A stretch of DNA of 64,000 bases from Flavobacteriales bacterium (GTDB lineage: Bacteria; Bacteroidota; Bacteroidia; Flavobacteriales_C; GCA-002722245), in the NCBI GenBank assembly GCA_023251075.1, contig JAHEZM010000005.1:24753-88752 (forward strand), in the 5' to 3' direction. Below are positions 1-36,384 of the stretch, one piece after another. A program made the translations under genes and the position numbers. Numbering within the stretch: position 1 is the stretch's first letter; each line of letters begins with the position of its first letter. A model generated the notes under the pieces. That model was not told the origin of the DNA. It did not search any database and worked only from the letters and a program-made list of their open reading frames with translations.

Positions 1-939
1 AAACTAGATATATATAAAGATCTTCTTTTAAAGAAGTATGACCAAAAATCAAGAGTGCGAGAAAAATTAAATCAATACATACAAGAAGTTTTAGATAAGG
101 TAAGTTCAGAATGGTTTATTGACCGTCCGGGAGAATCTGGGATAACAATTAATGTTGATTCAGAAGATCATGTTATTCATACATGGTTTAGTGGTATTGC
201 AGGTTATATTGCAGCCACTAAAGAATATGATGCAAAAAACGATAAAAAAGTATTTGAAGAATTTTGGTTGTCCAAGGATACTAAGTTGGTTCAGTTTTTA
301 GGGTTTGATTGCTCTTTTAGTCATGCTATTGTCTATCCTTCTTTACTTAGTAATCATGAGGAATTGGTCCAAGATAATTATGTGTTTACTAATGAATTTT
401 TAAAACTAGAAAATAAAGATTTTTCAACAAGTAGGGGGCATGCTATATGGGTAAATGATTTCTTAAATGAATACTCTTTAGATGCTGCTCGTTATTATTT
501 AGCTATTTATTCTCCTGAGGAAAAAGTATCGAATTTCAGTAAAAATGAGTTCATCCAATGGAATGAGGAATTTACAAAAGCAAAGGAAGATCTTTTAAAT
601 AATTTCATTGTAGTATCAGAAAAAAAGATAAGTTTTGATCTTGTTGTCAACAAGCATTCAGAAGCTCTGTCCAAGGTAATGGAAGCATGGAACCGATATT
701 CTTCAGTTCCTGAATATTCTATGAAAAAATTGGCCACTGAACTGTATGTTTTTCTGAAGTATATAAATCAATATTGCAACAATGATGAAACAGAAATGGT
801 GTTGTTATATAGTATTTTAGGAGAAGCTATACATCCTGATTTTTCATTAGAATTAAAATCTAAATATCAGTTTAAAAATCATAATTCTTTTGAGGTACTA
901 AAAGCGTTAGATTTTCATGAAAGCTATACAACCATCTGA
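1..939 (+). CDS. Class I aminoacyl-tRNA synthetase paralogue, MetRS-like (5' partial; frame is open to the window start)
   Basis: Clear MetRS homology: [10 protein letters not shown]...[29 protein letters not shown] matches E. coli MetG VWFDAPIGYM...[72 protein letters not shown] matches [37 protein letters not shown]. The KMSKS motif is degenerate (KDFSTS) and there is no long C-terminal tRNA-binding extension. Confidence 0.7.
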   Translation, partial: [312 protein letters not shown]

Positions 940-1064
940 AAATTATATTGAATAAAATGCTAAAAATTGTGTTTTAAAGACAAATGTCATGGGACCTTTA
1001 TTAGAAATACAAAAAGATAATTTTCCTGCAAATAATTTTTATTTCTGGTCGGCATTATAACAGT

Positions 1065-2141
1065 ATGGAAAACATAGATTTCGATGTAATAATAATTGGA
1101 GCGGGTATTTACGGAGCATCAATGGCGTATTCTTTATCTAAATATGGACTAAAAATAGTTTTAATAGAAAAGGAAACCCCTGGAGGTGCGGGATCAAGTA
1201 AATACTCAGGAGGAATTGTGCGGGTTTATGATGAAGATGAATCTTTAATTGCTAATAATCTTGCAGGACTTTATGAATTTGCCAATTGGAACTCTATAGG
1301 ATATCCAGGAAACTCTCCTTTTTTCCAAACGGGATTATTATATCTGCTAAAAAACGAGTCTGTTATTAGAGCAAAAGAAATTATAGAAAGGAGTTGTTCA
1401 GATGAAACAGAGTTAATCGAGTCGGAACAGCTTATTGATAATTTTCCCTTTTTAAAGAATCATACGGGTGATTATCTTTTATATGAAAAAAATAGTGGAT
1501 ACGCAGATGTACGGTTAACAATTAAAAATCTTATAGAGGGTTATAAAAGCAATGGTGGTTTATTGCTAGAAAATTGTAATGTTGAATCAGCAATAAATAA
1601 TGATGGAAATTGGAGCGTTAAAACCACATTTGCAAATCTTCATTCAAGTGTTGTTGTTTTCACAGTAGGGTCTTCCATCAGAAATTTTTTTCCTGATTTA
1701 GAAGTCTTTACTAAATCCGTACCTCTTACTTTAATAAGTGAGCGTGAAACCCCCTTCATATTACCGGTTATTGATGAAATTAATAATGTTTTCACCAGGC
1801 CTCTTAATGGTGAATTCTTTTTTTGTGGTACTCCTGGAAAACACATTAACGAATTTCCGGAACAGCTGCCAAAATATTCAGAAATAGAATTAGAGGATGT
1901 ATTATCAAAAATTTCTAAGGTCAATGGAAAAAATTATTCTGCAAATGTGATCAATGGCTTTAATGGCCATGATTCCTATACTAATGATTGTCGGCCTATT
2001 TATCAGTTTCACAAGATATTCAAAGGGGCATATTATCTATCTGGAATGTCAGGAAGAGGTTTTAAATCTTCACTTGCCGTAAGCAAAAAGGCAACAAAGG
2101 AAATAATAGAGTATTTACAAATATCTAATGAACTTAAGTGA
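1065..2141 (+). CDS. FAD-dependent oxidoreductase (DAO/glycine-sarcosine oxidase family)
   Basis: N-terminal Rossmann dinucleotide motif DVIIIGAGIYGASMAYSLSKYGLKIVLIEKE. Size of 358 aa is typical of the DAO family. Overlaps the next gene by 4 nt (ATGA), indicating operon coupling. Confidence 0.75.
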   Translation: MENIDFDVIIIGAGIYGASMAYSLSKYGLKIVLIEKETPGGAGSSKYSGGIVRVYDEDESLIANNLAGLYEFANWNSIGYPGNSPFFQTGLLYLLKNESVIRAKEIIERSCSDETELIESEQLIDNFPFLKNHTGDYLLYEKNSGYADVRLTIKNLIEGYKSNGGLLLENCNVESAINNDGNWSVKTTFANLHSSVVVFTVGSSIRNFFPDLEVFTKSVPLTLISERETPFILPVIDEINNVFTRPLNGEFFFCGTPGKHINEFPEQLPKYSEIELEDVLSKISKVNGKNYSANVINGFNGHDSYTNDCRPIYQFHKIFKGAYYLSGMSGRGFKSSLAVSKKATKEIIEYLQISNELK

Positions 2142-3115
2142 ACTCTATTTTTAAAATAGGAATGGTAGCGAGTATAAGCGATTTTACATCTGTTCATCGT
2201 GAAACTTTTAAAAATGCGGCAAGCTTATTTAGTGCATTGCATTTAAATATAGATAGTTCACGATCTCCTAGTTTATTATGGGAAGACGATTTTGCCAGTG
2301 AAATAGGGGGAATGAAAAGTGCTTTAAATTTAATTAAGCGTAAAGCAAATATAGTAATTGGTCATTTTGCTTCTTCGGCCGCCCTATCAGCATTAGAAAC
2401 ATATAATAATCAAATTCCTGTTCTATTACCTGCAGCAACTCTAGATAGAATAACTGAGAATCATTCCAATGCTTTTCGTTTAATAGGTAAAGACAGTGAC
2501 CTGATAGAATATCTATTTGCAGATATCAATCCCCAAAAAAACAGGATTCTTATTTGGGCAACCCATGATGGTTCTTTACATGGAAAAAATATTCAGCATT
2601 TCGCGAAGCTGTTTGCAGATAAATTTAATATCATCATAGCTACGGAATACTCTGAAAGTGTAAATTTTATATTATACTCTGGTTCTTTTTATAATAGTAT
2701 GGAGTTCTTGAGAAATTATAGTGGTGTTTCGTGTCCTATATTATTTACAGATGACGTAATTCATCCTAATATCGGTGATGAAATAGCTAAAAATAAGTTG
2801 GTTGATATTACAGCGTATGGATATTCATTAGATAAGAACCAGACTATGCGGGAATTATCTGATATTTATACAAGTCGATTTAATAAAGCTCCAGGAACTT
2901 ATTTTTTTGAAACTTATTCAGCTTTGCAAATCGCTTTGCAAATCGCTCTTATTTACAATAAAAAGCAACTCCTTTCTTCTGAAATAATAGAATTGCTACA
3001 ACACAACAGCTGGGATACTGCATTAGGAAAGATTAAATTTCAGAAGGGAGAAAATAATTTAGACCGCTATTCAAAATTTATTTTTAAAAACGGAAATCTA
3101 ATAGAAGAAAAATAA
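2138..3115 (+). CDS. Periplasmic-binding-protein type 1-like (LivJ-like) domain protein, no signal peptide
   Basis: IGMVASISD...ANIVIGHFASSAALSALETYNNQIPVLLPAATLDRIT...NAFRLIGKDSDLIEYL resembles the Peripla_BP_6/LivJ fold pattern. No signal peptide, so probably a cytoplasmic ligand-binding module. Confidence 0.4.
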   Translation: MNSIFKIGMVASISDFTSVHRETFKNAASLFSALHLNIDSSRSPSLLWEDDFASEIGGMKSALNLIKRKANIVIGHFASSAALSALETYNNQIPVLLPAATLDRITENHSNAFRLIGKDSDLIEYLFADINPQKNRILIWATHDGSLHGKNIQHFAKLFADKFNIIIATEYSESVNFILYSGSFYNSMEFLRNYSGVSCPILFTDDVIHPNIGDEIAKNKLVDITAYGYSLDKNQTMRELSDIYTSRFNKAPGTYFFETYSALQIALQIALIYNKKQLLSSEIIELLQHNSWDTALGKIKFQKGENNLDRYSKFIFKNGNLIEEK

Positions 3116-4081
3116 ATGGAAAATAAAATTGAAGATATTCTAGATAAAGAAATCGATAAACTAAGGCGCTTTAGTAATAAAATTAACCCGCAAAAAATTT
3201 ATGAACTACCCATTGAGCAGAGTAGGAAAATTGCTAAAGAAAGCATTTTGCCATTTACTTTAAAAAATGAAAAAAGCACTTCTTATGTTGAGCATGAATT
3301 ATTTTTTGGTAATGAAGAAGCTATTAAGATTAGGGTTTATTCTGCCGATAGAAAAGATTATCAAACCGGAATTGTTTTCTTTCATGGAGGTGGGTATGTA
3401 TTATATGATGTAGATGTTTATCACTCATTATGCGAATTTATTAGTGAAGCTTGTAATTCTAAGGTCATTTTTGTTGAATATAGAAAACCTCCTTACTATG
3501 AAATAGTAAATACTTATCAGGATTGTAAAAATACCTTGGATTGGGTTGTTTTGAATAAATTATTTTTAGGAATAGACAATATTGTTTTAATGGGAGATAG
3601 TGTCGGCGGTAATCTTGTTCTAAAAACTTTCCAAGAGTCGGAAAAAAATATCGATTTAATTGTTTTATGTTATCCGGTTCTTTCTTGGAATTTTACAAAT
3701 TTATCTTATCAAAAATATGGTGAAGGATATTTCTTAGACCAAAAGTTAATGGAGTGGTTTAAAAGAATTTCTTTTGGTCATTTAAATGATGATGAATTAA
3801 AAAAATATAACTTTACTTTTTTTAATGAAGAGATACCTAATTTGATTTTGATTTCGTCTGAATTTGATGTGCTTCGAGATGAATCATTTATATTTCAAAT
3901 GCAACTACAATCCCAAAATTCCAAATCAGTACATCTTCACTTTGAAAATATGGGTCATAACTTTCTATTGATGGCAGGGAGATTTAATTCAGCAAAAGAT
4001 GCACTCATAAAAATTTGTAACCAATTAAATATTCATATTAACCAATTAAATCATGAACGAAAAATTAAAAATCAAAATTGA
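3116..4081 (+). CDS. Alpha/beta-hydrolase fold-3 esterase/lipase (HSL family)
   Basis: HGGG oxyanion motif (VFFHGGGYVLYD) and GDSVGG nucleophile elbow. Immediately abuts the previous gene. Confidence 0.8.
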   Translation: MENKIEDILDKEIDKLRRFSNKINPQKIYELPIEQSRKIAKESILPFTLKNEKSTSYVEHELFFGNEEAIKIRVYSADRKDYQTGIVFFHGGGYVLYDVDVYHSLCEFISEACNSKVIFVEYRKPPYYEIVNTYQDCKNTLDWVVLNKLFLGIDNIVLMGDSVGGNLVLKTFQESEKNIDLIVLCYPVLSWNFTNLSYQKYGEGYFLDQKLMEWFKRISFGHLNDDELKKYNFTFFNEEIPNLILISSEFDVLRDESFIFQMQLQSQNSKSVHLHFENMGHNFLLMAGRFNSAKDALIKICNQLNIHINQLNHERKIKNQN

Positions 4082-4457
4082 GCATTATGAAAGTAAACTT
4101 TCATTTGAAGCCGATTCGTCGGATGTTTGGACTGCGGTTGACAATAAGGAAAATGTAATTGTTTTAGACGCAAGGTCGCCAAAAGCATATGAAAATGAAC
4201 ATATTGTGAATGCAATTAACATTCATCATAAACTAATGGATGAGAATACTACGAAGCATTTAGATAAAAATGCTCTTATTATTACTTATTGTGATGGTAT
4301 AGGATGTAATGCTTCTACAAAAGGCGCTTTGAAAATGGCCAAATTAGGGTTTGATGTAAAAGAGCTTTTAGGAGGTTTAGACTGGTGGAAAAGAGATGGG
4401 TATCCAACCCACATCTTGAGCACAAATAAAATTGCAGACCCTTCTTGTTGTATTTAA
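4053..4457 (+). CDS. Single-domain rhodanese-like sulfurtransferase
   Basis: Rhodanese active-site loop YCDGIGCNAS with catalytic Cys. Size is 134 aa. Confidence 0.7.
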   Translation: MNEKLKIKIEHYESKLSFEADSSDVWTAVDNKENVIVLDARSPKAYENEHIVNAINIHHKLMDENTTKHLDKNALIITYCDGIGCNASTKGALKMAKLGFDVKELLGGLDWWKRDGYPTHILSTNKIADPSCCI

Positions 4458-4463
4458 TATGAA

Positions 4464-4496
4464 TTGCCCACAGATCAAACTCTGTGGGCAATTTTT
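4464..4496 (+). terminator. Intrinsic terminator/attenuator-like hairpin between the rhodanese gene and the condensation-domain gene
   Basis: 11-bp perfect stem ttgcccacaga/tctgtgggcaa with loop tcaaac, followed by TTTTT. It ends 1 nt before the candidate ATG at 4498. Confidence 0.45.
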
Positions 4497-4497
4497 A

Positions 4498-6132
4498 ATG
4501 CCTTATTCGATGAACGAAATCAATGGATTTATTCATTTTCTTACTGAAAAGAAAATTGAATTACAGTGTAGTGAAGGACAATTGAAGATTTCCGCACCTA
4601 AAAATGTATTAACCAATGAAATCATTTCTGAAATACAGAAGAATAAAGCAAAGCTAATTGAGCTTTTAGTCTCCATCGAAAGCAAGGATCACAGACCTTT
4701 AATTCAGAAAATAGAAAAACAGGAAGGAATTTATAAAACTACCTATTCGCAAAAGGCTCAATGGGCAAAGTATAACTTTTCTTCCTTTTGGATTGCTGAA
4801 AATGGGTGCTTAATAAAGATTTTTAAAGAAATAAATCTTGATTTATTCAAACAAGCGTTATGGTTATTTGTTTTTAGGCATGATTGCCTTACCTCTCACT
4901 ATGAATTTACCGACGGAGATTTGGTTCAGGTTACTCAGGCTCAAAACCTACGAACCCCAGCGTTAAGGGTGTTAAAATTATCAAATGTTGCTGATATTTC
5001 AAGTTCCTCTAAGGAAATTTACCACAAAGAACTGAACACTTCTTTCGATTTAAATAAAGGTCCTTTATTTAGAGTAACAGTAGCTTCTTTTAATGAAGAG
5101 AATCACCATGTTTTTTATACTATTGATTCTAGCATTTATGATAGGATGTCTGAGCATATTATTATTAGTGAAATAGACGAAATATATGAATGTTTAAAAA
5201 ATAGAAAGCACATCAATTTGCCTGAAATTAATTTTCAATACCATGAATTTAGTGAATGGGAAGACACTTTGCTTAAAGGTAAATATGGAAATATTCTGAG
5301 AAATTATTGGAAGAAATATGTAAGTTCATTTAGGGAAGTAACCTATTTACCTACAGATTTTCCTTATGATTACCGCAAATCAAATTCAATGAATTATTTA
5401 GATGCATTTGAATTTGAAATTAAAAATTTTTGTAAACCAACTGCAATAGAGAAATTTGAATATATTTCCGGAACACGTTCTTCATTTAAATTTGTTTCAG
5501 GAGGCCTTTTTAAATTTACATTTTCTGACCAAAATATAATTCTACAGTTAAGAGATTTTTCCAAAGAAAATGCTATTTCCATGTATTCTATATTTCTTAG
5601 CGTATTCTATTTGTTATTTCACAAATTATCGAATCAAAAGGAAATTGTAATTGGAAATTGCGTTTCTTTAAAAGACGACCCTAAACTAAATCAAACAATA
5701 GGGTTTTTTACAAATATTATTTTTACTAAAGCAGAAGTAGACGAAAAAGAAGAATATTTATATTTTGTTAAACGGGTTATGAATGATTTCATAAATTGCT
5801 ATGAGCATAAAAATTATCCGTGGGAAAAAGTTCTTGAAGAAAGTAATAATGCTTACCATAAGTTATCCTTATTGTTCCTTGATTATTTAAATCTTGGTGA
5901 AAGGGAATCCGAAGAGGATAATGGGCGGTTAGAACATGAAGAGGGAGCCCCTGCTATATTTGATAACAGTTGTTTTATCCATGAATATAGAAATGCAATT
6001 CAGTTCCAGTGGATATATTCTAAACAATTATTTCATGAAGAAACGGTAAAAAACTTCATTGAAGAATATAAAAAAATACTTTTTACAGTGGTTAATAACC
6101 CTCAGAGCACAATTAAAAATATTCTACAATGA
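4498..6132 (+). CDS. Stand-alone NRPS-type condensation-domain protein with TubC-like N-terminal docking domain. The ORF track start 4432 lies inside the upstream hairpin; 4498 or 4510 is the likely start.
   Basis: The N-terminal ~60 aa (FLTEKKIELQCSEGQLKISAPKNVLTNEIISEIQKNKAKLIELL) match the TubC_N docking pattern. Condensation-domain core motifs are recognisable. C1 is SQKAQWAKY, C2 is FRHDCLTSHY, and C3 is HHVFYTIDSS (HH present, Asp spacing altered). C4 is QYHEFSEWE, C5 is IGFFTNIIFT, and C6 is HKNYPWE. Confidence 0.7.
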   Translation: MPYSMNEINGFIHFLTEKKIELQCSEGQLKISAPKNVLTNEIISEIQKNKAKLIELLVSIESKDHRPLIQKIEKQEGIYKTTYSQKAQWAKYNFSSFWIAENGCLIKIFKEINLDLFKQALWLFVFRHDCLTSHYEFTDGDLVQVTQAQNLRTPALRVLKLSNVADISSSSKEIYHKELNTSFDLNKGPLFRVTVASFNEENHHVFYTIDSSIYDRMSEHIIISEIDEIYECLKNRKHINLPEINFQYHEFSEWEDTLLKGKYGNILRNYWKKYVSSFREVTYLPTDFPYDYRKSNSMNYLDAFEFEIKNFCKPTAIEKFEYISGTRSSFKFVSGGLFKFTFSDQNIILQLRDFSKENAISMYSIFLSVFYLLFHKLSNQKEIVIGNCVSLKDDPKLNQTIGFFTNIIFTKAEVDEKEEYLYFVKRVMNDFINCYEHKNYPWEKVLEESNNAYHKLSLLFLDYLNLGERESEEDNGRLEHEEGAPAIFDNSCFIHEYRNAIQFQWIYSKQLFHEETVKNFIEEYKKILFTVVNNPQSTIKNILQ

Positions 6133-6154
6133 GCTTATAACCATTGATTTAGTT

Positions 6155-6886
6155 TCAGTTGTTTTTTAAAATCAATAATTCTGCATAATTCAATACTGTA
6201 TTAAAATGGCTTCCGCTACTTGTGTTTTGGCCGTGTAAACAGTAGGTATACAATTCAGGATCATCCATGATGGATAACTTATTTTGAGCCAATAAATGAT
6301 GTAATACAGGAGTATCTTCTTGTTTGTTCAAACTTGAATAAATTCCCATTTCAGATTTAAGGCACATTAAAGTTCCTTCCCATCCGTCATTGCGGGGGTT
6401 GGCCAGGTATCTTTTGCCAGTGCTTTTATCATAAATAATTAAACTGGCTAATGCACAGGCTGGTTTTTTTGAGAATTCAATAAAATTTTTCTGATTAAAC
6501 AATCGGTCTTTACTGTAAATATCATCGTCATCCCAAATACAAATGTATTCTCCTTGAACACTTTGCGTAGCAAGATTTCTTTTATCTCCTAAAGTAATGG
6601 GTTCTTTGGATTGTATTCGGTAGAAATAAATGTTTGATTCGCCTTTGTGAGTCACATCTGACTTACATTTCAATATATTGTCATCATTTTTTTGTACATC
6701 AATAAGTTCTATTTTATTAAAACTATTGTCCGAATTAACAAAGTCATTGGTTTCTTCGTCCTCAGCCATGTAAAAAATGTTGAGGTCTTTGTTCTCGTAA
6801 GTTTGTGCTTTAAAATAGGAGATAGAATCTTTTAAATAATTGACTCTTTGGTGTGTAATACAAACACAGGATATTTTTTCTTTCAT
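6155..6886 (-). CDS. Glycosyltransferase, GT2-like
   Basis: The N-terminus ISCVCITHQRVNYLKDSISYFKAQTYENKDLNIFYMAEDEE parallels the GT2 start (SVIIPT...NQTY...VVDDGS). An acidic DxD-type motif ICIWDDDDIYSKDRL is present. Confidence 0.55.
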   Translation of the reverse strand: MKEKISCVCITHQRVNYLKDSISYFKAQTYENKDLNIFYMAEDEETNDFVNSDNSFNKIELIDVQKNDDNILKCKSDVTHKGESNIYFYRIQSKEPITLGDKRNLATQSVQGEYICIWDDDDIYSKDRLFNQKNFIEFSKKPACALASLIIYDKSTGKRYLANPRNDGWEGTLMCLKSEMGIYSSLNKQEDTPVLHHLLAQNKLSIMDDPELYTYCLHGQNTSSGSHFNTVLNYAELLILKNN

Positions 6887-6893
6887 TTTGAAA

Positions 6894-7946
6894 TTACATA
6901 TAGGTATTAATAAATTCTTCCGGGAAATTGAGGCTTTCGAATACTCTGTTTTCCTGATCTTTTAAAAATGGATTTTCCATCATTCCACTTAATACATAAA
7001 CAAATGGAAATTGATCGGGGTTGTCATCGAAAGGCACAAAAAATTGCAGATGAAGTTTAGAAGTGGATACATCTAAATATTGAATGAACATTTCTACATT
7101 TTCTTCGCTTCCTTCATGAATAAATTTGTAATAAAAGTAGTTGAGCTGATACCAATACAAGCGGAAATAATATTTTTCAAGCGCCTCATATTGGTTGATT
7201 TTCTGCAGATATGCTTTAATATCATCGAGAATAAAAAAAATACTTTTGATATGTTTTTCTGTACAGGCAGAAGTCATGGTGGATCCTTGCCGTTGAATAT
7301 AGGTATAGTAGTCTTCGCGAATTACTTTTATCTTTTTACAGCTGGATAGGCAACTTACATTTTGTGCGAGATCTTCAAAGAATACTTCCCCAGGGAATCT
7401 ACATTTACCATTAAGAAAAAGTTTTGCTGAATATATTTTATTGGCACAGGAAGGTAAAATTTTCATACAGAGAAATGACTTCATTATTTTGTCGGCAGAA
7501 TATATCCCTGCTTCAATACCCTTATCTATTCCATGATTTCTTTCTTTCTCAATATTTTCTTCGTAAGTGTTTACTATTTCTTTTGTAAACAGCAAAGCAT
7601 CTACCTCTTCTTCATTGGTAAGCTCCTTATATATAGAGGTCAATGCATTTTCAGGTATAGTATCATCGCTATCAATGAACCAGAAATATTTGCCTTGAGC
7701 AATTTCAATTCCTTTGTTGCGCGCAGTACCTTGCCCCAAGTTATTTTGCGAAATGTATTTAATGAAAGAATATTGCTGGTGAAATTTTAAAATTATTTTT
7801 TCTGAATCATCTGTACTTCCATCATTAATGAGAATTAATTCAAAATCAGTGAAACTTTGATGGATAATAGAATTTAAACAATTCTCTAAATACCTCTCCA
7901 CATTAAAAACCGGAATGATGATACTAAAAAATGGTAATGAATTCAT
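6894..7946 (-). CDS. Glycosyltransferase family 2
   Basis: Classic GT2 N-terminus FSIIIPVFNVERYLENCLNSIIHQSFTDFELILINDGSTDDS and WFIDSDDTI motif. Confidence 0.85.
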   Translation of the reverse strand: MNSLPFFSIIIPVFNVERYLENCLNSIIHQSFTDFELILINDGSTDDSEKIILKFHQQYSFIKYISQNNLGQGTARNKGIEIAQGKYFWFIDSDDTIPENALTSIYKELTNEEEVDALLFTKEIVNTYEENIEKERNHGIDKGIEAGIYSADKIMKSFLCMKILPSCANKIYSAKLFLNGKCRFPGEVFFEDLAQNVSCLSSCKKIKVIREDYYTYIQRQGSTMTSACTEKHIKSIFFILDDIKAYLQKINQYEALEKYYFRLYWYQLNYFYYKFIHEGSEENVEMFIQYLDVSTSKLHLQFFVPFDDNPDQFPFVYVLSGMMENPFLKDQENRVFESLNFPEEFINTYM

Positions 7947-8060
7947 AGTTCTTGTTCGGTTACACGTGATCAGGCATTGTTAAGTTATGTTCAAAAGTAC
8001 TAAATAGTTATATAAATAATTGCTTTTTGTTTTTAACTTAGCTGCTTCACTAACTTAACT

Positions 8061-9038
8061 ATGAATATTACCGATAAAAAATGGGTAGATGCCATCTACA
8101 AACCTCGCTGGATTCTTTTTACATGGAAGTATACTGATTGGAATGTTATCTATTTCAATTTTCTTTCTTCTTTATACAAAGAGTTAAATTCCAGAAAAGA
8201 AATTTCAAGTATTTACATTACCCGATTTCAGGTGGATGAAAATGAATTCAAGGTAAATATTGCTGTTAATACATCAATGTACCATGTTGAAGAGATTCGG
8301 AAATTTGTTTTTGAAGAGTTTGATAAATACAAGGGGTCAAGTTTTTTTGCGCTGGAGAGTAAATATGATCAGATAGAATTTAAAGATTATCATATTTTTT
8401 CTGGTTTAGGTGCGAGCAAATTATTATATGAAAGTATTTTACCCATTACTTCAAATTGTTTACTCTCTTTTATGGCTGAGTTCGGAGAAAATTTTGATTT
8501 AGAAACTGCTTTAGAAAAGTCGATTCCTATTACATTAGGTTTATTACATGCTGCCGGATTGGAGAAAGATCAAATGCATTTATTTTATGATTATTTTTTT
8601 AATCTTCAATTAAGGCATATTAATACGGTGGAAACCAATGATGAATTAAGAGATAATTATATTAATGAGGTAAGGAAGAATTATTTACTACAGAAAGATG
8701 CTTTTATAGGCATTAGCGATTATTTAAGTGATGCCTTACTAGAAAATGAAATGGTGGATGAAGATTGGATTAATGAATGGTTTGGGGAATGCAGAAAGAT
8801 TCGTGAGCAGGTAATTCATTTGCCTGAACATATGTATATAGCATCGTTTAATTTTCAACCTGATGAGGATAGTAAATTAGATTTATTGACTCAGAAAAAA
8901 TTCAATATTATACAAAGTCTTTTAAGCGAGGTTCATTGGCAAACAGGTATCACCTACGTTTATCACATGAATTTAATTTATGCTTTAAAAGAGGGTTTTA
9001 AATCTATTTTTGAAACTAAACAATATCAAAAATACTAA
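8061..9038 (+). CDS. Hypothetical protein. Weak resemblance to the lanthipeptide-dehydratase C-terminal (SpaB_C / thiopeptide-type bacteriocin biosynthesis) domain.
   Basis: A 325-aa ORF with no signal peptide. SIYITRFQVDENEFKVNIAV loosely resembles the wFFiRY.D.gpHLRLRl core of PF14028. It sits 12 nt upstream of the TolC-like gene. The family assignment is unverified. Confidence 0.3.
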   Translation: MNITDKKWVDAIYKPRWILFTWKYTDWNVIYFNFLSSLYKELNSRKEISSIYITRFQVDENEFKVNIAVNTSMYHVEEIRKFVFEEFDKYKGSSFFALESKYDQIEFKDYHIFSGLGASKLLYESILPITSNCLLSFMAEFGENFDLETALEKSIPITLGLLHAAGLEKDQMHLFYDYFFNLQLRHINTVETNDELRDNYINEVRKNYLLQKDAFIGISDYLSDALLENEMVDEDWINEWFGECRKIREQVIHLPEHMYIASFNFQPDEDSKLDLLTQKKFNIIQSLLSEVHWQTGITYVYHMNLIYALKEGFKSIFETKQYQKY

Positions 9039-10405: not shown

Positions 10406-10843
10406 ATGAAAAGGATAAACGACTTCCGAAAACTCTTGGGTGTTGGCGCAAATGCTGATTTAGCAGAGCTTAAAGCCATTTACAGAAATTTCATGAAGGA
10501 GTTCCATCCCGATAAATTTCAGGAGGAAGAAGCCAAGTTAGAAGCAGAAAGCAAGAGTAAAGCAATTATCGAAGCCTATCATTTTTTAGTGAGTATTTCC
10601 CCCGAAACGCATGAACAGAATAAAGAAGCGTATACTAAAACTCTTACCACTTCTGTTATTGCTGATTTTGAATTTCAAAAATCGGTTTTAAAAATCACTT
10701 TTGTGGATGGAAGTATCTACGAATATTTTGGTGTTCCTAAAAACACCTTTGTGAAATTAATCAATGCCGATTCTCCGGGTAGATATGCTAAGCGACACGT
10801 TTATGATTCTTTTCCATTTAGAAATCTAAAGAAAACAGATTAG
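10406..10843 (+). CDS. J-domain (DnaJ-like) protein with C-terminal KTSC domain
   Basis: HPD motif in KAIYRNFMKEFHPDKF. The C-terminus VLKITFVDGSIYEYFGVPKNTFVKLINADSPGRYAKRHVYDSFPF matches the KTSC domain. Confidence 0.7.
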   Translation: MKRINDFRKLLGVGANADLAELKAIYRNFMKEFHPDKFQEEEAKLEAESKSKAIIEAYHFLVSISPETHEQNKEAYTKTLTTSVIADFEFQKSVLKITFVDGSIYEYFGVPKNTFVKLINADSPGRYAKRHVYDSFPFRNLKKTD

Positions 10844-10890
10844 TTTCTTGAACACGGATTATTTCTTTTTTCAGCAAATTGTTTTCCTGT

Positions 10891-10918
10891 ACCCAACCAA
10901 TGTTGTTTTCAAAACGTA
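10891..10918 (+). promoter_or_regulatory. ECF-sigma-type promoter ACCCAACC-N16-CGTA upstream of 10950
   Basis: gtACCCAACCaatgttgttttcaaaaCGTATTCTAtgg with a spacer of exactly 16 nt; it lies 32 nt upstream of the ATG. Confidence 0.6.
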
Positions 10919-10949
10919 TTCTATGGTTAAACCATAAAACTACTAGGTT

Positions 10950-12800
10950 ATGAATACTAAAACAGGTGATCAAAATATTTTGACTTTTGTATTTGCACTG
11001 GTGTTATCAGTGTTTTCAACCTTTGTGTTGAATGCTCAAAATGTAATTTCTCGAGATAAATTCAACGACAAAGCTTTATTGTATACCGCAGCTTATACTG
11101 CAGGAACAACAGTTACCACGAGCAATGATGCACAAGATTTTATTACCGCACCTTCGAGTGTGGCAATGAATTATTCAATTGCTAAAAAAGTGGGGAATGT
11201 TGCCAATAGCTATTTTGCATCGATGATGAACTATGTGAAATACCCAAAAGATTGGTCGTTTAATGTCGATAAAATTATCCTTAAACATAAAGGGGGATCA
11301 AACAAGCTGGCCATTAAAATTAAGTTGTATGAAGACAATGACATTTCGGGTGGTAATACTGCCGGAGATGAGCAATGGATGAGCACTTCGGTAACTGCAG
11401 GTCAATTGGGATGGACTACCTCTGAGTTTAATTTGGTTGATTTTACCCGTGTGGGCTCTACAGGAGCAGTGAATAGTAGTATTGATTTAAATCGTTTAAG
11501 GGCATGGGAAATTTATGTGGAGGATGTATCGGGAAAAGGAGATACCTCAGTAATAAAATTTGATGAATTATTAATTCACACCAATTACACTTCACCTACT
11601 TCTGGTGATGCTTACGTAACAGGTGCTTTTACACAATTGTGGAATGATGTAGGTTGTAAATGTGGTTTGTGGAATCAGGCGAGATGGGAGCAGGAATTTC
11701 AGAAAATGAAAGACATGAAGATGACTTCTTTTGTAATACAATACGGAGTATATGATATTTATTCATGGTATTCTCCAACTACAGTTCCGGGAATTACTCA
11801 GGGCAATACTTTCAACACCATTAACACGATGGTTAAAGCGGCTGAAAATGTAGGAATAGGATTGTATATTGGTTTGTATTATACCCCTTCGAAATGGGAT
11901 AATGCCAGTAAAACCAATGCAGCTACCTATTCGAATTTGTTGGTTACACAAAAACATGTGATTGATGACATTCATAATTTATTTGGTTCAAGCACTGCCT
12001 TTAAAGGTTGGTATATTCCGGAAGAAATTGATGATTATTCCTGGCAATCGGGCAACGCTAAAACCTATTTATTTCAATGGGTGCAAGATGTTGCTGCCTA
12101 TGCGCATACAAAAAATGCGCAAAAACCAGTAATGATTTCCCCTTTCTTTAATTTGTGGATGCCTGCCGATTGGCTAAAGCAATGGTATGAAGATTTTTTT
12201 ATTGCTGCTCCCGATTTAGATTTAGTAATTCCGCAGGATGGAGTGGGTATTACTCTCAAAAATGTGAATTATGATGTACCCCTTTATCTTTCAAAAATTA
12301 AAGAAGCTTGCGATGCACATCAGGTACAATTTGGTGTAAATATTGAATCGTTTCAACAAACTTCGGGATGGCCGATCGACAATGGTAATTTTGCGGCTAC
12401 TTCTGCTACTATCGATAGATATAAAGCACAATTGTGGGAAGCTGGATTACACAACCCGGTAGAAATTTTAACTTTCGAATGGGCCTATATGGAACCAGGA
12501 AATGGCGCCGCTGCAGATGATTTATACAACAATTATTTATTGTATGTGACTTCCATTACAACTAATGTTGCAGAAACTATTGATAACGTTATTCAGGTTT
12601 ATCCTAATCCGGCTAATCAGCACCTCTATTTCAATCAAAAAATTTCATCGGTGAAGTTATTTAGTGTTGAAGGAAAATTATTACTGACACAAAATAATAT
12701 TCAATCGTTAGATGTTGCTCTGTTGCCCGCAGCAGTTTATACGCTGCAAGTTCAGCAAGCCAATGGTGCACTACAAATTTTAAAAGTGGTGAAAGACTAA
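10950..12800 (+). CDS. Secreted TIM-barrel glycoside-hydrolase-like protein (DUF4434-like), T9SS type-A cargo
   Basis: Signal peptide and C-terminal Por_Secre_tail (VYPNPANQHLYFN...LQILKVVKD). The central region CKCGLWNQARWEQEFQKMKDMKMTSFVIQY resembles the DUF4434/GH-like family. Confidence 0.5.
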   Translation: MNTKTGDQNILTFVFALVLSVFSTFVLNAQNVISRDKFNDKALLYTAAYTAGTTVTTSNDAQDFITAPSSVAMNYSIAKKVGNVANSYFASMMNYVKYPKDWSFNVDKIILKHKGGSNKLAIKIKLYEDNDISGGNTAGDEQWMSTSVTAGQLGWTTSEFNLVDFTRVGSTGAVNSSIDLNRLRAWEIYVEDVSGKGDTSVIKFDELLIHTNYTSPTSGDAYVTGAFTQLWNDVGCKCGLWNQARWEQEFQKMKDMKMTSFVIQYGVYDIYSWYSPTTVPGITQGNTFNTINTMVKAAENVGIGLYIGLYYTPSKWDNASKTNAATYSNLLVTQKHVIDDIHNLFGSSTAFKGWYIPEEIDDYSWQSGNAKTYLFQWVQDVAAYAHTKNAQKPVMISPFFNLWMPADWLKQWYEDFFIAAPDLDLVIPQDGVGITLKNVNYDVPLYLSKIKEACDAHQVQFGVNIESFQQTSGWPIDNGNFAATSATIDRYKAQLWEAGLHNPVEILTFEWAYMEPGNGAAADDLYNNYLLYVTSITTNVAETIDNVIQVYPNPANQHLYFNQKISSVKLFSVEGKLLLTQNNIQSLDVALLPAAVYTLQVQQANGALQILKVVKD

Positions 12801-12809
12801 CCCCATAAA

Positions 12810-12858
12810 TTCAAGAAAGAAGGAGATTGATTTATATCCTTCTTTCTTGAATTTTTTG
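12810..12858 (+). terminator. Rho-independent terminator
   Basis: 14-bp perfect stem ttcaagaaagaagg/ccttctttcttgaa followed by TTTTTT. Confidence 0.7.
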
Positions 12859-12862
12859 ACTT

Positions 12863-12890
12863 ACCCAACCTCTTTCCTTTTTGCTCCGTA
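12863..12890 (+). promoter_or_regulatory. ECF-sigma-type promoter upstream of 12934
   Basis: ttACCCAACCtctttcctttttgctcCGTATTCTTAAG, spacer 16 nt. Confidence 0.6.
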
Positions 12891-12933
12891 TTCTTAAGTT
12901 ACGAGGCTTCTGTTCAAATTAATTCTTATTACT

Positions 12934-14736
12934 ATGAAAGCGAAAAAAATCATTCGTATAGTATTGTTGGCATGTATTCAATCGCAATTTTTATTTGCTC
13001 AATTGATACCCGATTGGAGAAGAATAGATTGGTCGGCGGCAGGCTACGAAGGCGAAATTCCATGCTATACCAATTTAAGAGATGCTGTAGTAGAATTTGG
13101 TATGGACAATACAGGACTTACCGATAATGCTAAAAAAATTAACGATGCTATTAAATTAATTAACCCAGGTGAAGTACTTTATTTTCCTAATGGAACTTAC
13201 TTAATAAAAACACAAATTAATTTGAAATCGAATGTGGTGATTAGGGGAGAATCGGTTACAGGAACTTTATTAAAATTCACTTTTACCCAAGATTTAGATT
13301 GTTTTTCATTGGTAGGAAAATCAACACAAAATGTTACAACAATTACCGACCCAAAAACGAAAGATTCATATACTGTTGTGGTAGCCAATACAACAGGTTT
13401 AGCAGTAGGTCAATTATTGGAAATTGAACAGGAAAATGATACTGCTTTGCATTTCGGTCATAGTTGGAATAATGCCGATTGGGCACAATGTTTAAAAGGT
13501 CAGCTGGTTAAAATTACTGCGGTAGATCTTCTCACAAAAACACTCACTTTCGATAGGCCTCTAAGTATTGATTATGATAAAAAATACAAATTCAGAGTGC
13601 ATGTTCTGGATCCAATAAAACAAGTTGGAATTGAAAATTTACACATGATTAGAACCGATAAAACGGGAGGCTATAATGGAAATAATATCATGATGATTTA
13701 TGCACAAAATTGTTGGGTGAAAGGAGTGCATAGTGAATTTACTGCGCGTTATCATTTTAGGTTAGACAGATCCACCAATCTTGCAATTCGTGATAGTTAT
13801 ATTGAAAATGCTTATTACTGGGGAGCAGGTGGTGCTGCCTATGGTGTGATGTGTGCCGATCATACCTGTAACTCTTTAGTGGAGAATAATATTTTTCGCA
13901 TGCTTCGCCATTCATTGATTGTGAAAGAAGGCGCAAATTCTAATGTGTATGCTTACAATTATGTTTATCAAAGTAAATGGGATGGTACTGATTTTCCTGC
14001 CGATATTTCTTTACATGGACACTATGCTTTTGAAAATTTATTTGAAGGAAATGTGGTGCGTAGAGGAACTATTTCTGATAGCTGGGGACCTACCGGACCA
14101 GGCAATACTTTTTTGAGAAATAGAGTTGAAGGCTTTAAAAATTTATGGATACAAGATCTTTCTCATTACCAAAATTTTATTGCCAATGAATTTACTTTTG
14201 TAGGTACTAAAAATAAAAATCCCGGTATTGAAAATGATCACGATAACTCGGGTGTTAAGGGAATTATAAGAAGAGAAAACAGAAATGTGGTAGGTGTTGA
14301 TACCCTTACTCAATATGAAGTTCCGGCCTCTTATTATTTGAATGCTAAGCCCAATTTTTTTGGTAGTATGCCGTGGCCTAATATTGGAAAAGGAACTACT
14401 TATGGTACGGGTATGAATCCGGCCAAATTGCGATGGCTTACCGATAGTTTAAATCCAATTCCTGAATGGAACAATTGTGTAATTACATCAATGCAAACAG
14501 CAAAATTAAGTGGAGTTGATTTTTATCCTAATCCCACCAATCACGTATTTACAGTGCATGTAGAGAATCAATCGTTAATTAATGTGTGGGTTTATGATGC
14601 TTTAGGGAAGGAAGTATTTTGTACTTCAGCAAATGCTAATATTTCGTTTGGCGAAAATTTAGCGCCTGGTATTTACTGGGTAAAAATTCAACAAGAATCA
14701 AATGCCTCCTTCACTTATAAAGCCATACGATTATGA
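12934..14736 (+). CDS. Right-handed beta-helix (pectate-lyase superfamily) protein, T9SS type-A cargo
   Basis: Signal peptide. NPGEVLYFPNGTYLI matches the Pectate_lyase_3 motif. The C-terminal CTD is FYPNPTNHVFTVH...YKAIRL. Confidence 0.65.
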   Translation: MKAKKIIRIVLLACIQSQFLFAQLIPDWRRIDWSAAGYEGEIPCYTNLRDAVVEFGMDNTGLTDNAKKINDAIKLINPGEVLYFPNGTYLIKTQINLKSNVVIRGESVTGTLLKFTFTQDLDCFSLVGKSTQNVTTITDPKTKDSYTVVVANTTGLAVGQLLEIEQENDTALHFGHSWNNADWAQCLKGQLVKITAVDLLTKTLTFDRPLSIDYDKKYKFRVHVLDPIKQVGIENLHMIRTDKTGGYNGNNIMMIYAQNCWVKGVHSEFTARYHFRLDRSTNLAIRDSYIENAYYWGAGGAAYGVMCADHTCNSLVENNIFRMLRHSLIVKEGANSNVYAYNYVYQSKWDGTDFPADISLHGHYAFENLFEGNVVRRGTISDSWGPTGPGNTFLRNRVEGFKNLWIQDLSHYQNFIANEFTFVGTKNKNPGIENDHDNSGVKGIIRRENRNVVGVDTLTQYEVPASYYLNAKPNFFGSMPWPNIGKGTTYGTGMNPAKLRWLTDSLNPIPEWNNCVITSMQTAKLSGVDFYPNPTNHVFTVHVENQSLINVWVYDALGKEVFCTSANANISFGENLAPGIYWVKIQQESNASFTYKAIRL

Positions 14737-15836
14737 GAACTAAATTAATTTCTTTATTCATTTTTATTTTTTCACAACATTTTTTGTTGGGTCAGCAAAT
14801 CATTGATCTTACACGACTTTATGGCGTAACTATCGATGATGTTTCTAATGTTTCGGCTATTAAAAAATCTTTAGCTAAGCATTGTAAAAAAATGACTGCA
14901 AGAATTGTGTTCGATGAATTTGTGCCCGCAACTGATTATGTAGAAGCAGTAGATTCTATTCACGATGTTGCATTTATTTTGGGGGAAATTTTAGATAGTT
15001 ATTATGTGGATGCTGTTTCTGTAAATGAATATGCGGCACGCACCACAGAGTATTTAGATGCTTTTGAAGATAAAGTAGATATTTGGGAAATTGGAAATGA
15101 AATCAATGGCGAGTGGGTGGGCAATCCTTCTGATGTGGTGGCTAAAATTACCGACGCCTATCATCAGGTAAAACAAAGAGGAAAAAAGGCTGAGCTCACT
15201 TTGTATTATAATTCTGATTGTTTTGATAATGCTGCCAATGAAATGTTTACCTGGACAAAAGCCAATGTTCCCAATGAATTGAAACAAGGCTTAGATTATG
15301 TTTTAGTGAGTTATTATGAAGACGATTGTAATTTATTTCAACCCAATTGGCAAGAAGTTTTTGATAGTTTACATGTTTTATTTCCCAATTCTAAAATTGG
15401 AATGGGTGAGTGTGGTACCGATACAGTGATTAAAAAAGCTGGTTTTATTGATCGATATTACAACATGAATATTTCTACTCCTAATTATGTGGGTGGATAT
15501 TTTTGGTGGTATTATGTTCACGATGCGGTGCCTTACACCCAACCGTTATGGAATGAAATTAATAATCAATTGTGTTCGAATCAAACCAACTCTGCTGTAG
15601 AATTGTTTGAAGGGGAAGTTTCTATTTACAATAACACAAATTCCGCTTCTTTTATTTTTAAAGCCTCTGATAATAGTTCTTATACTCTTAATGTTTATAA
15701 TGCTTTAGGAGAAAAGATAGAGCAAGCGAGTGCAGTAAATTCTTTACAATTTGGCAGCAATTTTTCATCGGGAATTTATTTTGTAACAGTAGTAAATAGT
15801 TCCAATCAATCAACAGTTTTTTCAGTGGTTAAATAG
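14733..15836 (+). CDS. Clan GH-A-like glycoside hydrolase, T9SS type-A cargo
   Basis: Signal peptide. A DIWEIGNEINGEW-type catalytic NE motif. C-terminal CTD IYNNTNSASFIFKA...STVFSVVK. A 4-nt overlap with the previous gene indicates an operon. Confidence 0.45.
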   Translation: MRTKLISLFIFIFSQHFLLGQQIIDLTRLYGVTIDDVSNVSAIKKSLAKHCKKMTARIVFDEFVPATDYVEAVDSIHDVAFILGEILDSYYVDAVSVNEYAARTTEYLDAFEDKVDIWEIGNEINGEWVGNPSDVVAKITDAYHQVKQRGKKAELTLYYNSDCFDNAANEMFTWTKANVPNELKQGLDYVLVSYYEDDCNLFQPNWQEVFDSLHVLFPNSKIGMGECGTDTVIKKAGFIDRYYNMNISTPNYVGGYFWWYYVHDAVPYTQPLWNEINNQLCSNQTNSAVELFEGEVSIYNNTNSASFIFKASDNSSYTLNVYNALGEKIEQASAVNSLQFGSNFSSGIYFVTVVNSSNQSTVFSVVK

Positions 15837-15856
15837 TAGTTTTTTAAAGTTGGGAG

Positions 15857-15887
15857 GCGCCCCGTAATCTTACGGGGCGCTTTTTTT
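15857..15887 (+). terminator. Rho-independent terminator
   Basis: ggcgccccgtaaTCttacggggcgc followed by TTTTTTT. Confidence 0.8.
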
Positions 15888-15889
15888 AC

Positions 15890-15917
15890 ACCCAACCTCC
15901 ATGAATTTTGTAACGTA
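15890..15917 (+). promoter_or_regulatory. ECF-sigma-type promoter upstream of 16019
   Basis: acACCCAACCtccatgaattttgtaaCGTACTCTTATG, spacer 16 nt. The leader is about 100 nt. Confidence 0.55.
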
Positions 15918-16018
15918 CTCTTATGTAGAGGGGGAATTGTACGGGCAGTTTTATTTTTCCTTATCACCAACAAAACTTAACTAAACGGGAGGAGATGTTT
16001 TACTTCTAAAATTTAGTT

Positions 16019-19000: not shown

Positions 19001-19582
19001 AATGATTTGGGATGTTCGGCCAGCGATTCTGTGTTTGTGAAGAAAAATTTATTACCAAATATTTCTTTGGAGAATGATTCAACTATTTGTGAAAATGGTT
19101 ATGACGAAATAATATTAAATGCTCAATATCAACAAGCCAATAGTATTTTATGGAGTACAGGAACTCAAAATACATCTTCCATTAAAATTAAAACCAGTGG
19201 TGCGTATTGGGTTAAGATTGTAGATTCCAATATGTGTGTAAATGCAGATACTGTTGTTTTTTCTGCCTTGTGTGATGATATTATTTTCACTTTCCCTAAT
19301 GTGTTTACTCCTAATAATGATGGGTATAATGATGTATTTCACCCTTTCGGTGTGAACGATTATACTTTTCAGGAATTAATGGCAAACATGATTAATTTAG
19401 ATTTTGAAATGTATGATCGTTGGGGAATAAAAATGTATGAATCGAGAGAAATTATTCCAAATTGGGATGGAAGATTTAATGGTGAAAATGCTCCGTCAGG
19501 AACCTATTATTTCGTAGTGAAATATACCAATAGAGCAGGAAAATCAAGAGAATTAACAGGAGTGGTAACTTTAATAAGATAA
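16019..19582 (+). CDS. Giant secreted repeat adhesin-like protein, T9SS type-B cargo (paralogue of 53993..57607)
   Basis: Signal peptide. The conserved N-terminal domain (SVVSDNAGNLLFYTDG...VVDMSLKGGKGDIV) is shared with ORF 53993. It carries multiple ~74-aa Cys-bracketed modules. The C-terminus FPNVFTPNNDGYNDVFHPFG...WDGRFNGENAPSGTYYFVVKY...VTLIR is the gliding-motility CTD. Confidence 0.8.
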   Translation: MENLFCILIKKSKNALKLNVLVLFILLFTTVNAQYQQWYFGQKLGLNFSTGNPVISNIPVGKGPTDIYEAISVVSDNAGNLLFYTDGISVWDATHTVMQGVGGGLDGSSDGGAITGSSVQGAVIMQMPGSTVRYMIISVDCMQDVMAGSSKGMRLTVVDMSLKGGKGDIVASQKNSQLRNGLAANLVGEMIGVVSGDCNTNWIVVHGVGVNGNKFYAYKITSGSTVNNISGGGSPVISTVGPTLAANDQGRGSMVFSHSAVAPNIHKMGLTSQGVGAFLFDFNTSTGVVSNATTISSSNTMFYYGAEFSPDNSKFYFSNYISSGNPSLYQYDLNTTALNSLPNATTDDIGSIRLAPDNKLYCAPRLGSGLSVINSPNSSFAAINFVKDVISFAPATISLGLPEMYVCSSAIPCGDTTLTASIPSVCTSNGSFDLNSYNGTSDAGTWTISNAPLGSTATISSAHIFNINNSVAGNYTVRHTLTTVSPSCPSYSERTFQVYALPVVDLSDQTICSGTTATFDAGAGMNSYNWTGPSSYTSTSQSITVSIPGVYAVTVSNANCSANASALLIVKSLPLVSNLIDQSVCFGESATFDAGAGKVAYHWTGPNGYTDTTQSITVNAAGIYSVTADSNGCTSLAESVDLNIKSLPLVSTLNNQSVCFGESATFDAGAGKAAYHWTGPNGYTNTSQSITVNAAGTYSVTADSNGCTSLTESVDLNIKSLPLVSTLNNQSVCFGESATFDTGAGKAAYHWTGPNGYTNTTQSITVNVAGTYSVTVDSNGCTSLSASVDLTINALPNISVNTVNDLCENTTPEILTANPSGGKWIIDGNIITNIGDPSILTSGQHSAKYYFTDGNNCVDSSALQLFSVFDVDTVDLVDAEYCAGSFYQFSLPNNWDKYWWNNILGTNQFTVNSGSQTVVLRVEDVNGCFTQDSAFVNELEIAIPDLGDNKSICEFENIILSPGTPHDLKYLWSNADTTSQITVDSEGGYKVTVSNDLGCSASDSVFVKKNLLPNISLENDSTICENGYDEIILNAQYQQANSILWSTGTQNTSSIKIKTSGAYWVKIVDSNMCVNADTVVFSALCDDIIFTFPNVFTPNNDGYNDVFHPFGVNDYTFQELMANMINLDFEMYDRWGIKMYESREIIPNWDGRFNGENAPSGTYYFVVKYTNRAGKSRELTGVVTLIR
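17729..18394 (+). repeat. Three near-identical 222-bp tandem repeats inside the adhesin gene (a fourth, diverged copy lies at about 17506-17728)
   Basis: Copies start at 17729, 17951 and 18173. Each encodes KSLPLVS.L.DQSVCFGESATFDAGAGK.AYHWTGPNGYT.T.QSITVN.AG.YSVTADSNGCTSL.ESVDLNI, with more than 93% nucleotide identity. Confidence 0.9.
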
Positions 19583-20755: not shown

Positions 20756-20777
20756 ATAAAAGAGTCCAATATTTATT

Positions 20778-21347: not shown

Positions 21348-21381
21348 GGAAGAAGTGAAAACACTTCCTCCTTGATAAGAG

Positions 21382-21409: not shown

Positions 21410-21422
21410 ACTATTCGCTTAC

Positions 21423-22076: not shown

Positions 22077-22105
22077 AATATAAATTTTATTGGTTTAAAA
22101 TGAAG

Positions 22106-36382: not shown

Positions 36383-36384
36383 TT

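Follow-up and report, generated by a model that had tools for sequence, protein, structure and literature searches.

A free-standing condensation-domain protein with a docking domain and without the active-site histidine pair, encoded at the end of a predicted hydrazine-synthetase cluster of Bacteroidota

Condensation (C) domains that stand alone behind a docking domain of their own have been described before, in Bamb_5915 of the enacyloxin pathway, where a beta-hairpin dock lies ahead of the C domain, and in Kj12C of the rhabdopeptide pathway, whose N-terminal dock binds the tail of Kj12B. Both release a chain onto a free acceptor, and both have a normal HHxxxDG motif of which the histidine is required. 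Here we report on a protein of the same architecture, one dock and a single C domain, encoded in a 64,000-nucleotide stretch of a Flavobacteriales genome (contig JAHEZM010000005.1, positions 24,753 to 88,752), which as a whole we call the window. While this stand-alone arrangement is already known, three aspects of the dock-C protein, as we refer to it, are new: the full loss of the histidine pair in a free-standing, LCL-like domain, the place of its gene at the end of a predicted hydrazine-synthetase cluster, and the phylum. Bamb_5915 and Kj12C serve chain release by polyketide synthases (PKSs) or nonribosomal peptide synthetases (NRPSs) in Proteobacteria, whereas the dock-C protein belongs to a predicted hydrazine cluster of Bacteroidota and reads DSxxxDR at the motif. 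It resembles them further in having a discrete carrier in its cluster, a putative one of 82 amino acids (aa), and differs in lacking any histidine at the motif position. Bamb_5915 is a structural match of the dock-C model; its structure, 6cgo, was not among the phmmer matches, the sequence similarity being too low.

The second point of comparison is hydrazine biosynthesis. An N-hydroxylase, a cupin, a protein resembling methionyl-tRNA synthetase (MetRS-like, either fused or split) and a DAO-type oxidase form the published hydrazine-forming machinery, exemplified by Spb38/39/40, Tri26-28, AzsL/M/N and Apy9-11; Spb39, AzsM and Apy10 cleave the hydrazine adduct, and in the azaserine and triacsin pathways an AMP-ligase loads a hydrazino acid onto a small carrier protein. 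The azaserine pathway also provides a functional precedent in AzsO, whose N-terminal dock precedes a Cy domain with a DxxxxD motif that esterifies serine with the carrier-bound hydrazonoacetyl group, an activity abolished by D193A and D198A. AzsO and ThzO (thrazarine) belong to the same type of pathway as the dock-C protein, with N-hydroxylase, cupin, MetRS-like protein, oxidase dependent on flavin adenine dinucleotide (FAD), AMP-ligase and small carrier; they share with it the N-terminal dock and a His-less motif with aspartate at both ends, and their donor is delivered on a carrier protein in trans. On the other hand, AzsO is a Cy-A-CP protein (CP, carrier protein) with the acceptor serine on its own carrier domain, whereas the dock-C protein has neither an A domain nor a CP. 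AzsO is also of the Cy family while the dock-C protein is closest to LCL domains, a comparison made from the description of AzsO.

Ordinary LCL domains such as TycC6, LgrA C2 and DhbF C2 are 18-25% identical to the dock-C protein, which, unlike them, has no His pair, an arginine for the glycine, the replacement R392K, no C7 motif and a 37-aa insertion, and is free-standing. Other His-less domains of the C fold are known (X domains with HRxxxDD, I domains and HtmB2-CT, 8z0q), but they lie within megasynthetases, have no dock in front and show no specific sequence kinship to the dock-C protein. The partners of X domains are P450s and those of I domains beta-hydroxylases; for HtmB2-CT our literature search found no functional description. 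His-less domains of this fold, among them X, I, CmodAA and AzsO-type Cy, are current signposts for unusual chemistry, and the literature that we found on hydrazine-synthetase pathways mentions none from Bacteroidota.

Active-site motif, fold and docking domain

Both histidines of the HHxxxDG motif are missing from the dock-C protein. In the phmmer alignment to TycC6 (2jgp), 'MHHSISDGVS' stands over 'IDSSIYDRMS', and the same register of the active-site motif C3 is found in a MAFFT alignment with 60 reference C domains, which were excised from the matches of a search of representative proteins, and in an alignment of 16 sequences (the query and 15 C domains). The first histidine is replaced by aspartate, the catalytic second histidine by serine and the glycine by arginine, with the aspartate in place and the trailing serine kept; all three alignments therefore give DSSIYDR where canonical LCL, DCL or starter domains have HHxxxDG with its second histidine. 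At the equivalent positions D210, D215 and S218 satisfy the DxxxxDxxS pattern of Cy-type domains. In the AlphaFold (AF2) model, loop 210-215 joins strand 203-209 to helix 216-234, the same strand-helix loop of C domains in which the literature places HHxxxDG. The first-pass annotation, made from the sequence without database searches, had read the motif as HHVFYTIDSS, with the His pair kept and the aspartate shifted; the alignments show the reverse, both histidines lost and the aspartate in place. H203 and H204 open the preceding strand, at its far end from the loop, and many ordinary C domains of the 60-domain alignment carry a histidine at the second of these strand positions alongside their own HHxxxDG.

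The ORF (open reading frame) itself and its C fold, both proposed in the first pass, are well founded. A frame of 544 codons would stay open by chance with P ~1.6e-20 at the local guanine-cytosine (GC) content of 29.5%. Two Pfam domains, TubC_N and Condensation (PF00668), are found in the 544-aa protein far above their curated cut-offs, an NCBIfam scan returned partial matches to NRPS models only, and the AF2 model is confident (mean confidence score, pLDDT, 82) and has a two-lobed fold like that of chloramphenicol acetyltransferase. The protein ends at the C-domain boundary with no remnant of an A domain, the next gene begins 22 nucleotides (nt) further on the opposite strand, and the identical protein sequence is present in independent samples. 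Two alternative starts exist: ATG 4510 gives 540 aa (the Logan gene call P0001) and fits the docking-domain alignment best, and ATG 4459 gives 557 aa (the NCBI/ENA call P0204) and lies inside a hairpin, 1 nt past the stop of the preceding gene.

Of the other core motifs, C2, C4, C5 and C6 can be made out within the C domain, but only part of C1 and no C7; the first pass had recognised C1 to C6, with C3 misread. Scaffold residues R127, H128, D215, S218, Y248, W254, G402 and N406 are retained; the losses include, besides C7, an arginine before C5 that is 100% conserved (R392K). An insertion at residues 293-331 is not present in any aligned C domain. By its best matches (e.g. TycC6, LgrA C2, DhbF C2) the domain is LCL-like, and the AF2 model was built from an LCL-type alignment, which biases its structural neighbours towards this subtype. 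Although its motif matches that of the Cy family, the protein was not assigned to it, because in overall similarity LCL domains are the closest. The X domain of glycopeptide NRPSs was set aside as well, for the motif is DSxxxDR and not HRxxxDD, the protein is free-standing, and neither the window nor the visible contig encodes a P450. Neither PapA5 nor the WS/DGAT or BAHD families fit, since Pfam gives Condensation plus dock and the structural neighbours agree; with the best match outside the PapA5 and WS/DGAT branches and a dock present, the assignment to the NRPS C superfamily stands.

The dock, too, is as first described. Its match to TubC_N (Table 1) is borne out by the AF2 model (helix 5-17, strands 21-25 and 28-32, helices 40-48 and 50-61) and by its alignment with 11 N-terminal docks of NRPSs; Kj12B-NDD and EpoB are matched weakly. 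Beta-hairpin docking domains bind a C-terminal tail of at most 15 residues on a carrier protein and are able to cross-talk with non-cognate tails. Compared with the NRPS of a related cluster in Kordia, the docks are 51% identical over 47 aa and the C domains only 25% identical. The better preservation of the dock suggests that, as judged from these sequences, docking is the function conserved between the two proteins.

Searches for orthologues returned little else. In a word-indexed search of 5.8 billion proteins the dock-C protein matched itself and, weakly, one NRPS, and nothing else. An exhaustive HMMER search of 1.84 billion representatives yielded, beyond the protein itself, only giant multi-module NRPSs, whose scores are summed over many C domains (at most ~156 bits per domain), and this search is blind to single-domain relatives scoring ~160 to 337 bits. 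No dock-C orthologue was found in scans of genome and metagenome contigs, and a profile of the docking domains alone recovered fragments only.

The predicted hydrazine cassette and its relatives

The genes that precede the dock-C gene in the window are listed in Table 1. From the DAO-family gene to the rhodanese gene the intergenic distances are -4, 0 and -29 nt, followed by 40 nt to the dock-C gene, all on the + strand; downstream come two GT2 glycosyltransferase genes on the other strand and then unrelated genes, many of them for type IX secretion cargo, which marks the genome as one of Bacteroidota. The region to the left of the window is visible on a 41,957-bp Logan contig of SRR14366772 that carries a 100%-identical dock-C protein. 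Its gene order, all in one direction, is AMP-binding (more than 547 aa), an 82-aa ORF, Lys/Orn N-hydroxylase, Aminotran_3, Cupin_2 (128 aa), MetRS-like (502 aa), DAO, binding-protein-like, Abhydrolase_3, rhodanese and TubC_N-C. With MetRS-like and DAO genes in the window and cupin and N-hydroxylase genes on the Logan contig, the gene content is that of a hydrazine-synthetase (cupin/MetRS-like) cluster that closes with the dock-C gene and has its 5' half to the left of the window.

Table 1. Features at the left end of the window and within the dock-C gene (window positions)
Feature	Position	Strand	Remarks
MetRS-like gene, 3' part	1-939	+	frame open from base 1; full protein P0152, 502 aa
DAO-family FAD oxidoreductase	1065-2141	+	position of Spb39/AzsM/Apy10
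Leu/Ile/Val-binding-protein-like (Peripla_BP_6)	2138-3115	+	Logan gene call from ATG 2162
Abhydrolase_3 / hormone-sensitive-lipase-family esterase	3116-4081	+	collinear with Puia cluster
Rhodanese-domain protein	4053-4457	+	29-nt overlap with esterase gene; C-terminus ...DPSCCI
GC-rich hairpin and T run	4461-4494	+	between rhodanese stop (4455-4457) and dock-C ORF
Stand-alone dock and C-domain ORF	4498-6132	+	544 aa and stop; ATG 4498, stop 6130-6132
TubC_N-type beta-hairpin docking domain	4519-4668	+	residues 8-57; PF18563, E 1.6e-12
Condensation-superfamily domain	4729-6123	+	residues 78-542; Pfam E 3.9e-52; LCL-like by best matches
HHVFYTIDSS, stretch earlier taken for C3	5104-5133	+	residues 203-212; HH = 203-204, nt 5104-5109
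True C3 (active-site) position	5125-5151	+	D210-S211-S-I-Y-D215-R216-M-S218 where H-H-x-x-x-D-G-x-S is canonical
Insertion, ~37-39 residues (293-331)	5374-5490	+	junction of N lobe and C lobe; pLDDT <50

In agreement with the first-pass annotation, a Pfam scan of the window found no A, T or KS domain. From this it had been argued that the protein acts in trans on a carrier encoded elsewhere; the trans action we retain, while 'elsewhere' is probably wrong, because the same cluster holds an AMP-binding gene and an 82-aa ORF whose equivalents in related clusters are PP-binding. These two genes lie ~8 kb upstream of the dock-C gene, just outside the window. The corresponding ORFs of related clusters, 79-94 aa long, carry GxDS, and both of the two that were scanned pass the Pfam cut-off for PP-binding; by analogy, the 82-aa ORF is probably the cluster's own discrete carrier protein.

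The left edge of the window contains an annotation trap. The fragment of the MetRS-like gene scores 242 bits against the NCBIfam model NF008859, 'methionine--tRNA ligase'. Read by eye, the full protein P0152 has an HLGH signature and a degenerate KMSKS region, FSTSR. Judging from its sequence and context, P0152 probably belongs to a split hydrazine synthetase as its aminoacyl-activating half, and the name is likely a mis-annotation of a gene that would be biosynthetic and not housekeeping. The rhodanese-domain protein is a sulfurtransferase without an obvious role in a hydrazine pathway, and none is found at that position in the related clusters examined. GC content is ~30% over window positions 1-9000, where the cluster and the glycosyltransferase genes beside it lie, and 33-40% at 10500-27000; horizontal transfer of the cluster was considered from this contrast and dropped, the signal being too weak to interpret.

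MetRS-like homologues (40-45% identity, ~500 aa) occur in Puia, Ferruginibacter, Kordia, Yeosuana, Chitinophagales and other Bacteroidota. The N-hydroxylase/cupin/MetRS-like/DAO set was found in eight related loci, and in all loci examined a cupin gene precedes the MetRS-like gene while DAO and Peripla_BP_6 genes follow it. The proteins of the window are 31-45% identical to their counterparts in these clusters, which makes the window's cluster a distant member of the group. In five of the seven related clusters examined the cassette comes with an NRPS that has TubC_N-C or C at its start; the Puia NRPS starts with A-T, and the Yeosuana locus has no visible NRPS. The cassette repeatedly occurs together with a C-led NRPS, which in several cases bears a TubC_N dock, and the window's genome shows a lone dock-C only.

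The layouts of these clusters vary. In one, whose gene set is very like that of azaserine, the cassette is accompanied, in slightly variable order, by an NRPS of the form TubC_N-C-A-T-C-T-TE (one locus has no TubC_N match), a KASIII-like protein, a CP, an AMP-ligase, a P450, a GNAT protein, a TE and a phosphopantetheinyl transferase. The Kordia/Yeosuana type contains an aminotransferase, and in Kordia ends in an NRPS starting with TubC_N-C. From its AMP-ligase gene as far as its esterase gene the Puia cluster is collinear with the window's; beyond this it has a hexapeptide transferase, a CmlA-like hydroxylase and a large NRPS (A-T-C-A-T-C-T...). A further variant has an aspartate kinase beside the aminotransferase, which we infer by analogy to fit a diaminobutyrate-based route like that of Apy. 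A class-III aminotransferase gene stands directly before the cupin gene in most clusters (L018 9001-10230, L003 8199-9614, L006 8198-9616, L008 8226-9632); aminotransferase and kinase would fit a pathway that, like Apy, N-hydroxylates 2,4-diaminobutyrate rather than lysine as its carrier amine and has to supply or recycle it.

Two further observations concern these relatives. A Peripla_BP_6 protein follows the DAO protein in every cluster examined (L001 12657-13652, L003 13898-14869, L008 12626-13609, L018 7144-8109 and others), with 53 invariant columns across seven sequences, and is not named among the azaserine or triacsin genes in the literature on those pathways. The NRPS of Kordia aestuariivivens (L012 17428-20898) likewise combines TubC_N and Condensation in the same cassette context; it differs from the dock-C protein in its motif, NHIIVDGWS, in its C-domain score of 346 bits and in continuing into further domains, including PP-binding. 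Behind its TubC_N-C part lies a stretch with the signature VIALDCDHTLWEG, which we take to be typical of FkbH-like HAD domains, and this suggests that the Kordia NRPS may join a glycerate-derived unit to the hydrazine unit.

Between the rhodanese and dock-C genes lies the hairpin of Table 1, which the first pass had seen as a strong terminator at the ORF start and taken as a sign of separate regulation. The hairpin is real: its 12-14-bp GC-rich stem and 6-nt loop fold with -22 to -23.5 kcal/mol (z -5.3), and 0 of 200 shuffles fold as well. It starts 4 nt past the rhodanese stop and takes up almost all of the 40-nt gap, so that its T run leads straight to ATG 4498, 4 nt beyond. A consensus terminator scan did not call it, probably because the maximal stem consumes part of the T run. 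It was also considered as a dispersed repeat and rejected, with only one copy in the window. No Bacteroidota-type -7 motif (TAnnTTTG) occurs within 400 nt upstream of the dock-C ORF, and sigma-70-type sites (30 found against a mean of 37 in shuffles) are uninformative. With no room for a promoter between hairpin and ORF and no -7 motif upstream, separate regulation is not supported; it is likelier that the dock-C gene is reached by read-through from the upstream operon, which the hairpin may terminate or attenuate, than that it has a promoter of its own. Two further perfect GC-rich hairpins with 11-12-bp arms and 2-nt loops, at 15857-15880 (just past a gene ending at 15836) and at 49629-49654, show that such structures are not limited to this site.

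Proposed function and its alternatives

Combining the known dock-C architecture with the precedent of AzsO, we tentatively favour, as the leading candidate although it falls short of an even chance, a trans-acting transfer or release enzyme that would dock on the cluster's small carrier and work without a histidine. The beta-hairpin dock would capture a short C-terminal tail of the ~82-aa discrete carrier, itself loaded by the neighbouring AMP-binding enzyme. The tunnel of the C fold would then align the hydrazine-derived acyl thioester of the carrier with a nucleophile supplied from outside the dock-C protein, be it a free amine, an alcohol or a hydrazine nitrogen, so that an amide, ester or hydrazide would form and the carrier protein be freed. 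Catalysis would proceed by positioning alone, as in Cy-type domains, whose DxxxxDxxS would here correspond to D210...D215..S218. In our view hydrazine and hydroxylamine nucleophiles, being largely unprotonated at neutral pH, would have less need of a base and may require no general base at all. The partner carrier, the substrate and the catalytic activity are what we infer from these parallels.

Several observations weigh against such an enzyme. Not only are both histidines of HHxxxDG gone, but the glycine has become arginine and the fully conserved arginine before C5 a lysine, and many C-type enzymes, MxgH with its H142 among them, cannot work without the second histidine. In related clusters the catalytic histidine is still there in the leading C domains (NHIIVDG in Kordia, HHIITDG in L018). 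Divergence is high throughout, as the protein matches the 60 C domains at only 37 of the 70 positions where these show 80% conservation or more, the Pfam Condensation score is 178 bits against the 346 of the leading Kordia C domain, and the domain contains a 37-aa insertion that is modelled with low confidence. Given the overall similarity to LCL and not to Cy domains, the match to DxxxxDxxS may be a coincidence of degeneration. The strong hairpin immediately ahead of the start codon may curb expression, and with no orthologue recovered by our searches there is no evidence of conservation for the dock-C protein.

A bolder form of the proposal is rather doubtful, namely that the protein is an active, new subtype of C domain: LCL-derived, free-standing and dock-equipped, with the His pair changed to Asp/Ser in convergence on the Cy-type DxxxxDxxS, which would work on the hydrazine-derived unit of the carrier, or with a hydrazine nitrogen as nucleophile, to form a hydrazide, ester or amide and let the product go, in the last step towards an N-N-bonded product of Bacteroidota. 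If it is active, an LCL-type scaffold can work without histidine on hydrazine-type substrates, and a new N-N-bonded metabolite would be indicated. The protein is small and free-standing and has its own docking handle, which makes it easy to express and test.

The strongest alternative, still on the unlikely side, is that the dock-C protein forms no bond and is a non-catalytic adaptor, a pseudo-enzyme of the C fold in the manner of X or I domains, which would bind the carrier through its dock and offer the tethered hydrazine intermediate to a tailoring enzyme of the cluster, such as the oxidase, the esterase or the rhodanese. It would then be a free-standing counterpart of X and I domains. However, beyond the common fold it has no specific similarity to either, its best matches being ordinary LCL domains; no P450 or beta-hydroxylase is encoded on the visible part of the cluster; the known cases are all embedded in megasynthetases, none of them free-standing; and the scaffold of the active-site loop, R127 and D215, is kept, though this is also true of X domains.

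That the protein is an evolutionary relic, the surviving dock-C piece of a lost NRPS that is now drifting, we consider improbable. Related clusters do have a full NRPS at the corresponding place (A-T-C-A-T-C-T... in Puia, TubC_N-C-A-T-C-T-TE in others) where only dock-C is left here, and the high divergence, the lost catalytic residues, the lack of a detectable orthologue and the strong hairpin that separates the gene from the operon would all suit decay. Such a history is made less likely by the intact frame, improbable by chance at this GC content, by the clean end at the C-domain boundary with the opposite-strand gene close behind, and by the well-kept dock; moreover, the fold is confidently predicted and the sequence is identical in independent samples.

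Improbable to a slightly greater degree is a coincidental neighbourhood, in which the partner NRPS or PKS line is encoded elsewhere in the genome, as the first pass had supposed. While the lack of A and T domains in the window, the separating hairpin and the ability of beta-hairpin docks to cross-talk with non-cognate tails could be cited in its favour, the position of the gene and the recurrence of dock-C with the cassette argue otherwise. The gene follows on the same strand, 40 nt behind the preceding gene of the cluster, and no separate promoter could be recognised for it; the cluster itself encodes an AMP-ligase and a small carrier-type ORF; C-led NRPSs, several of them TubC_N-docked, recur with the cassette in other Bacteroidota; and the genes downstream are unrelated glycosyltransferases on the opposite strand. 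Finally, a canonical His-dependent C domain with the motif HHVFYTID and a displaced aspartate is scarcely credible: two adjacent histidines do lie 6-7 residues ahead of the true motif position, but three independent alignments assign them to the preceding strand, where ordinary C domains that keep their own HHxxxDG commonly have a histidine, and the model sets them away from the loop.

Other features of the window

Much of the window is given over to several large cargo proteins of type IX secretion that have CHU_C or Por_Secre_tail domains. On the - strand, a 217-aa protein (21423-22076) shows an odd pairing of Kazal-type protease-inhibitor repeats with a BFD-like [2Fe-2S]-binding motif, and its gene adjoins that of an extracytoplasmic-function (ECF) sigma factor (20778-21347). 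Pfam gave no match, up to an E-value of 1e-5, for three consecutive large ORFs of 572, 628 and 472 aa (32758-37803), also on the - strand. The + strand encodes a small protein with a DnaJ J-domain and a KTSC domain (10406-10843) and an 825-aa FeoA-FeoB fusion for ferrous iron transport (58300-60777).

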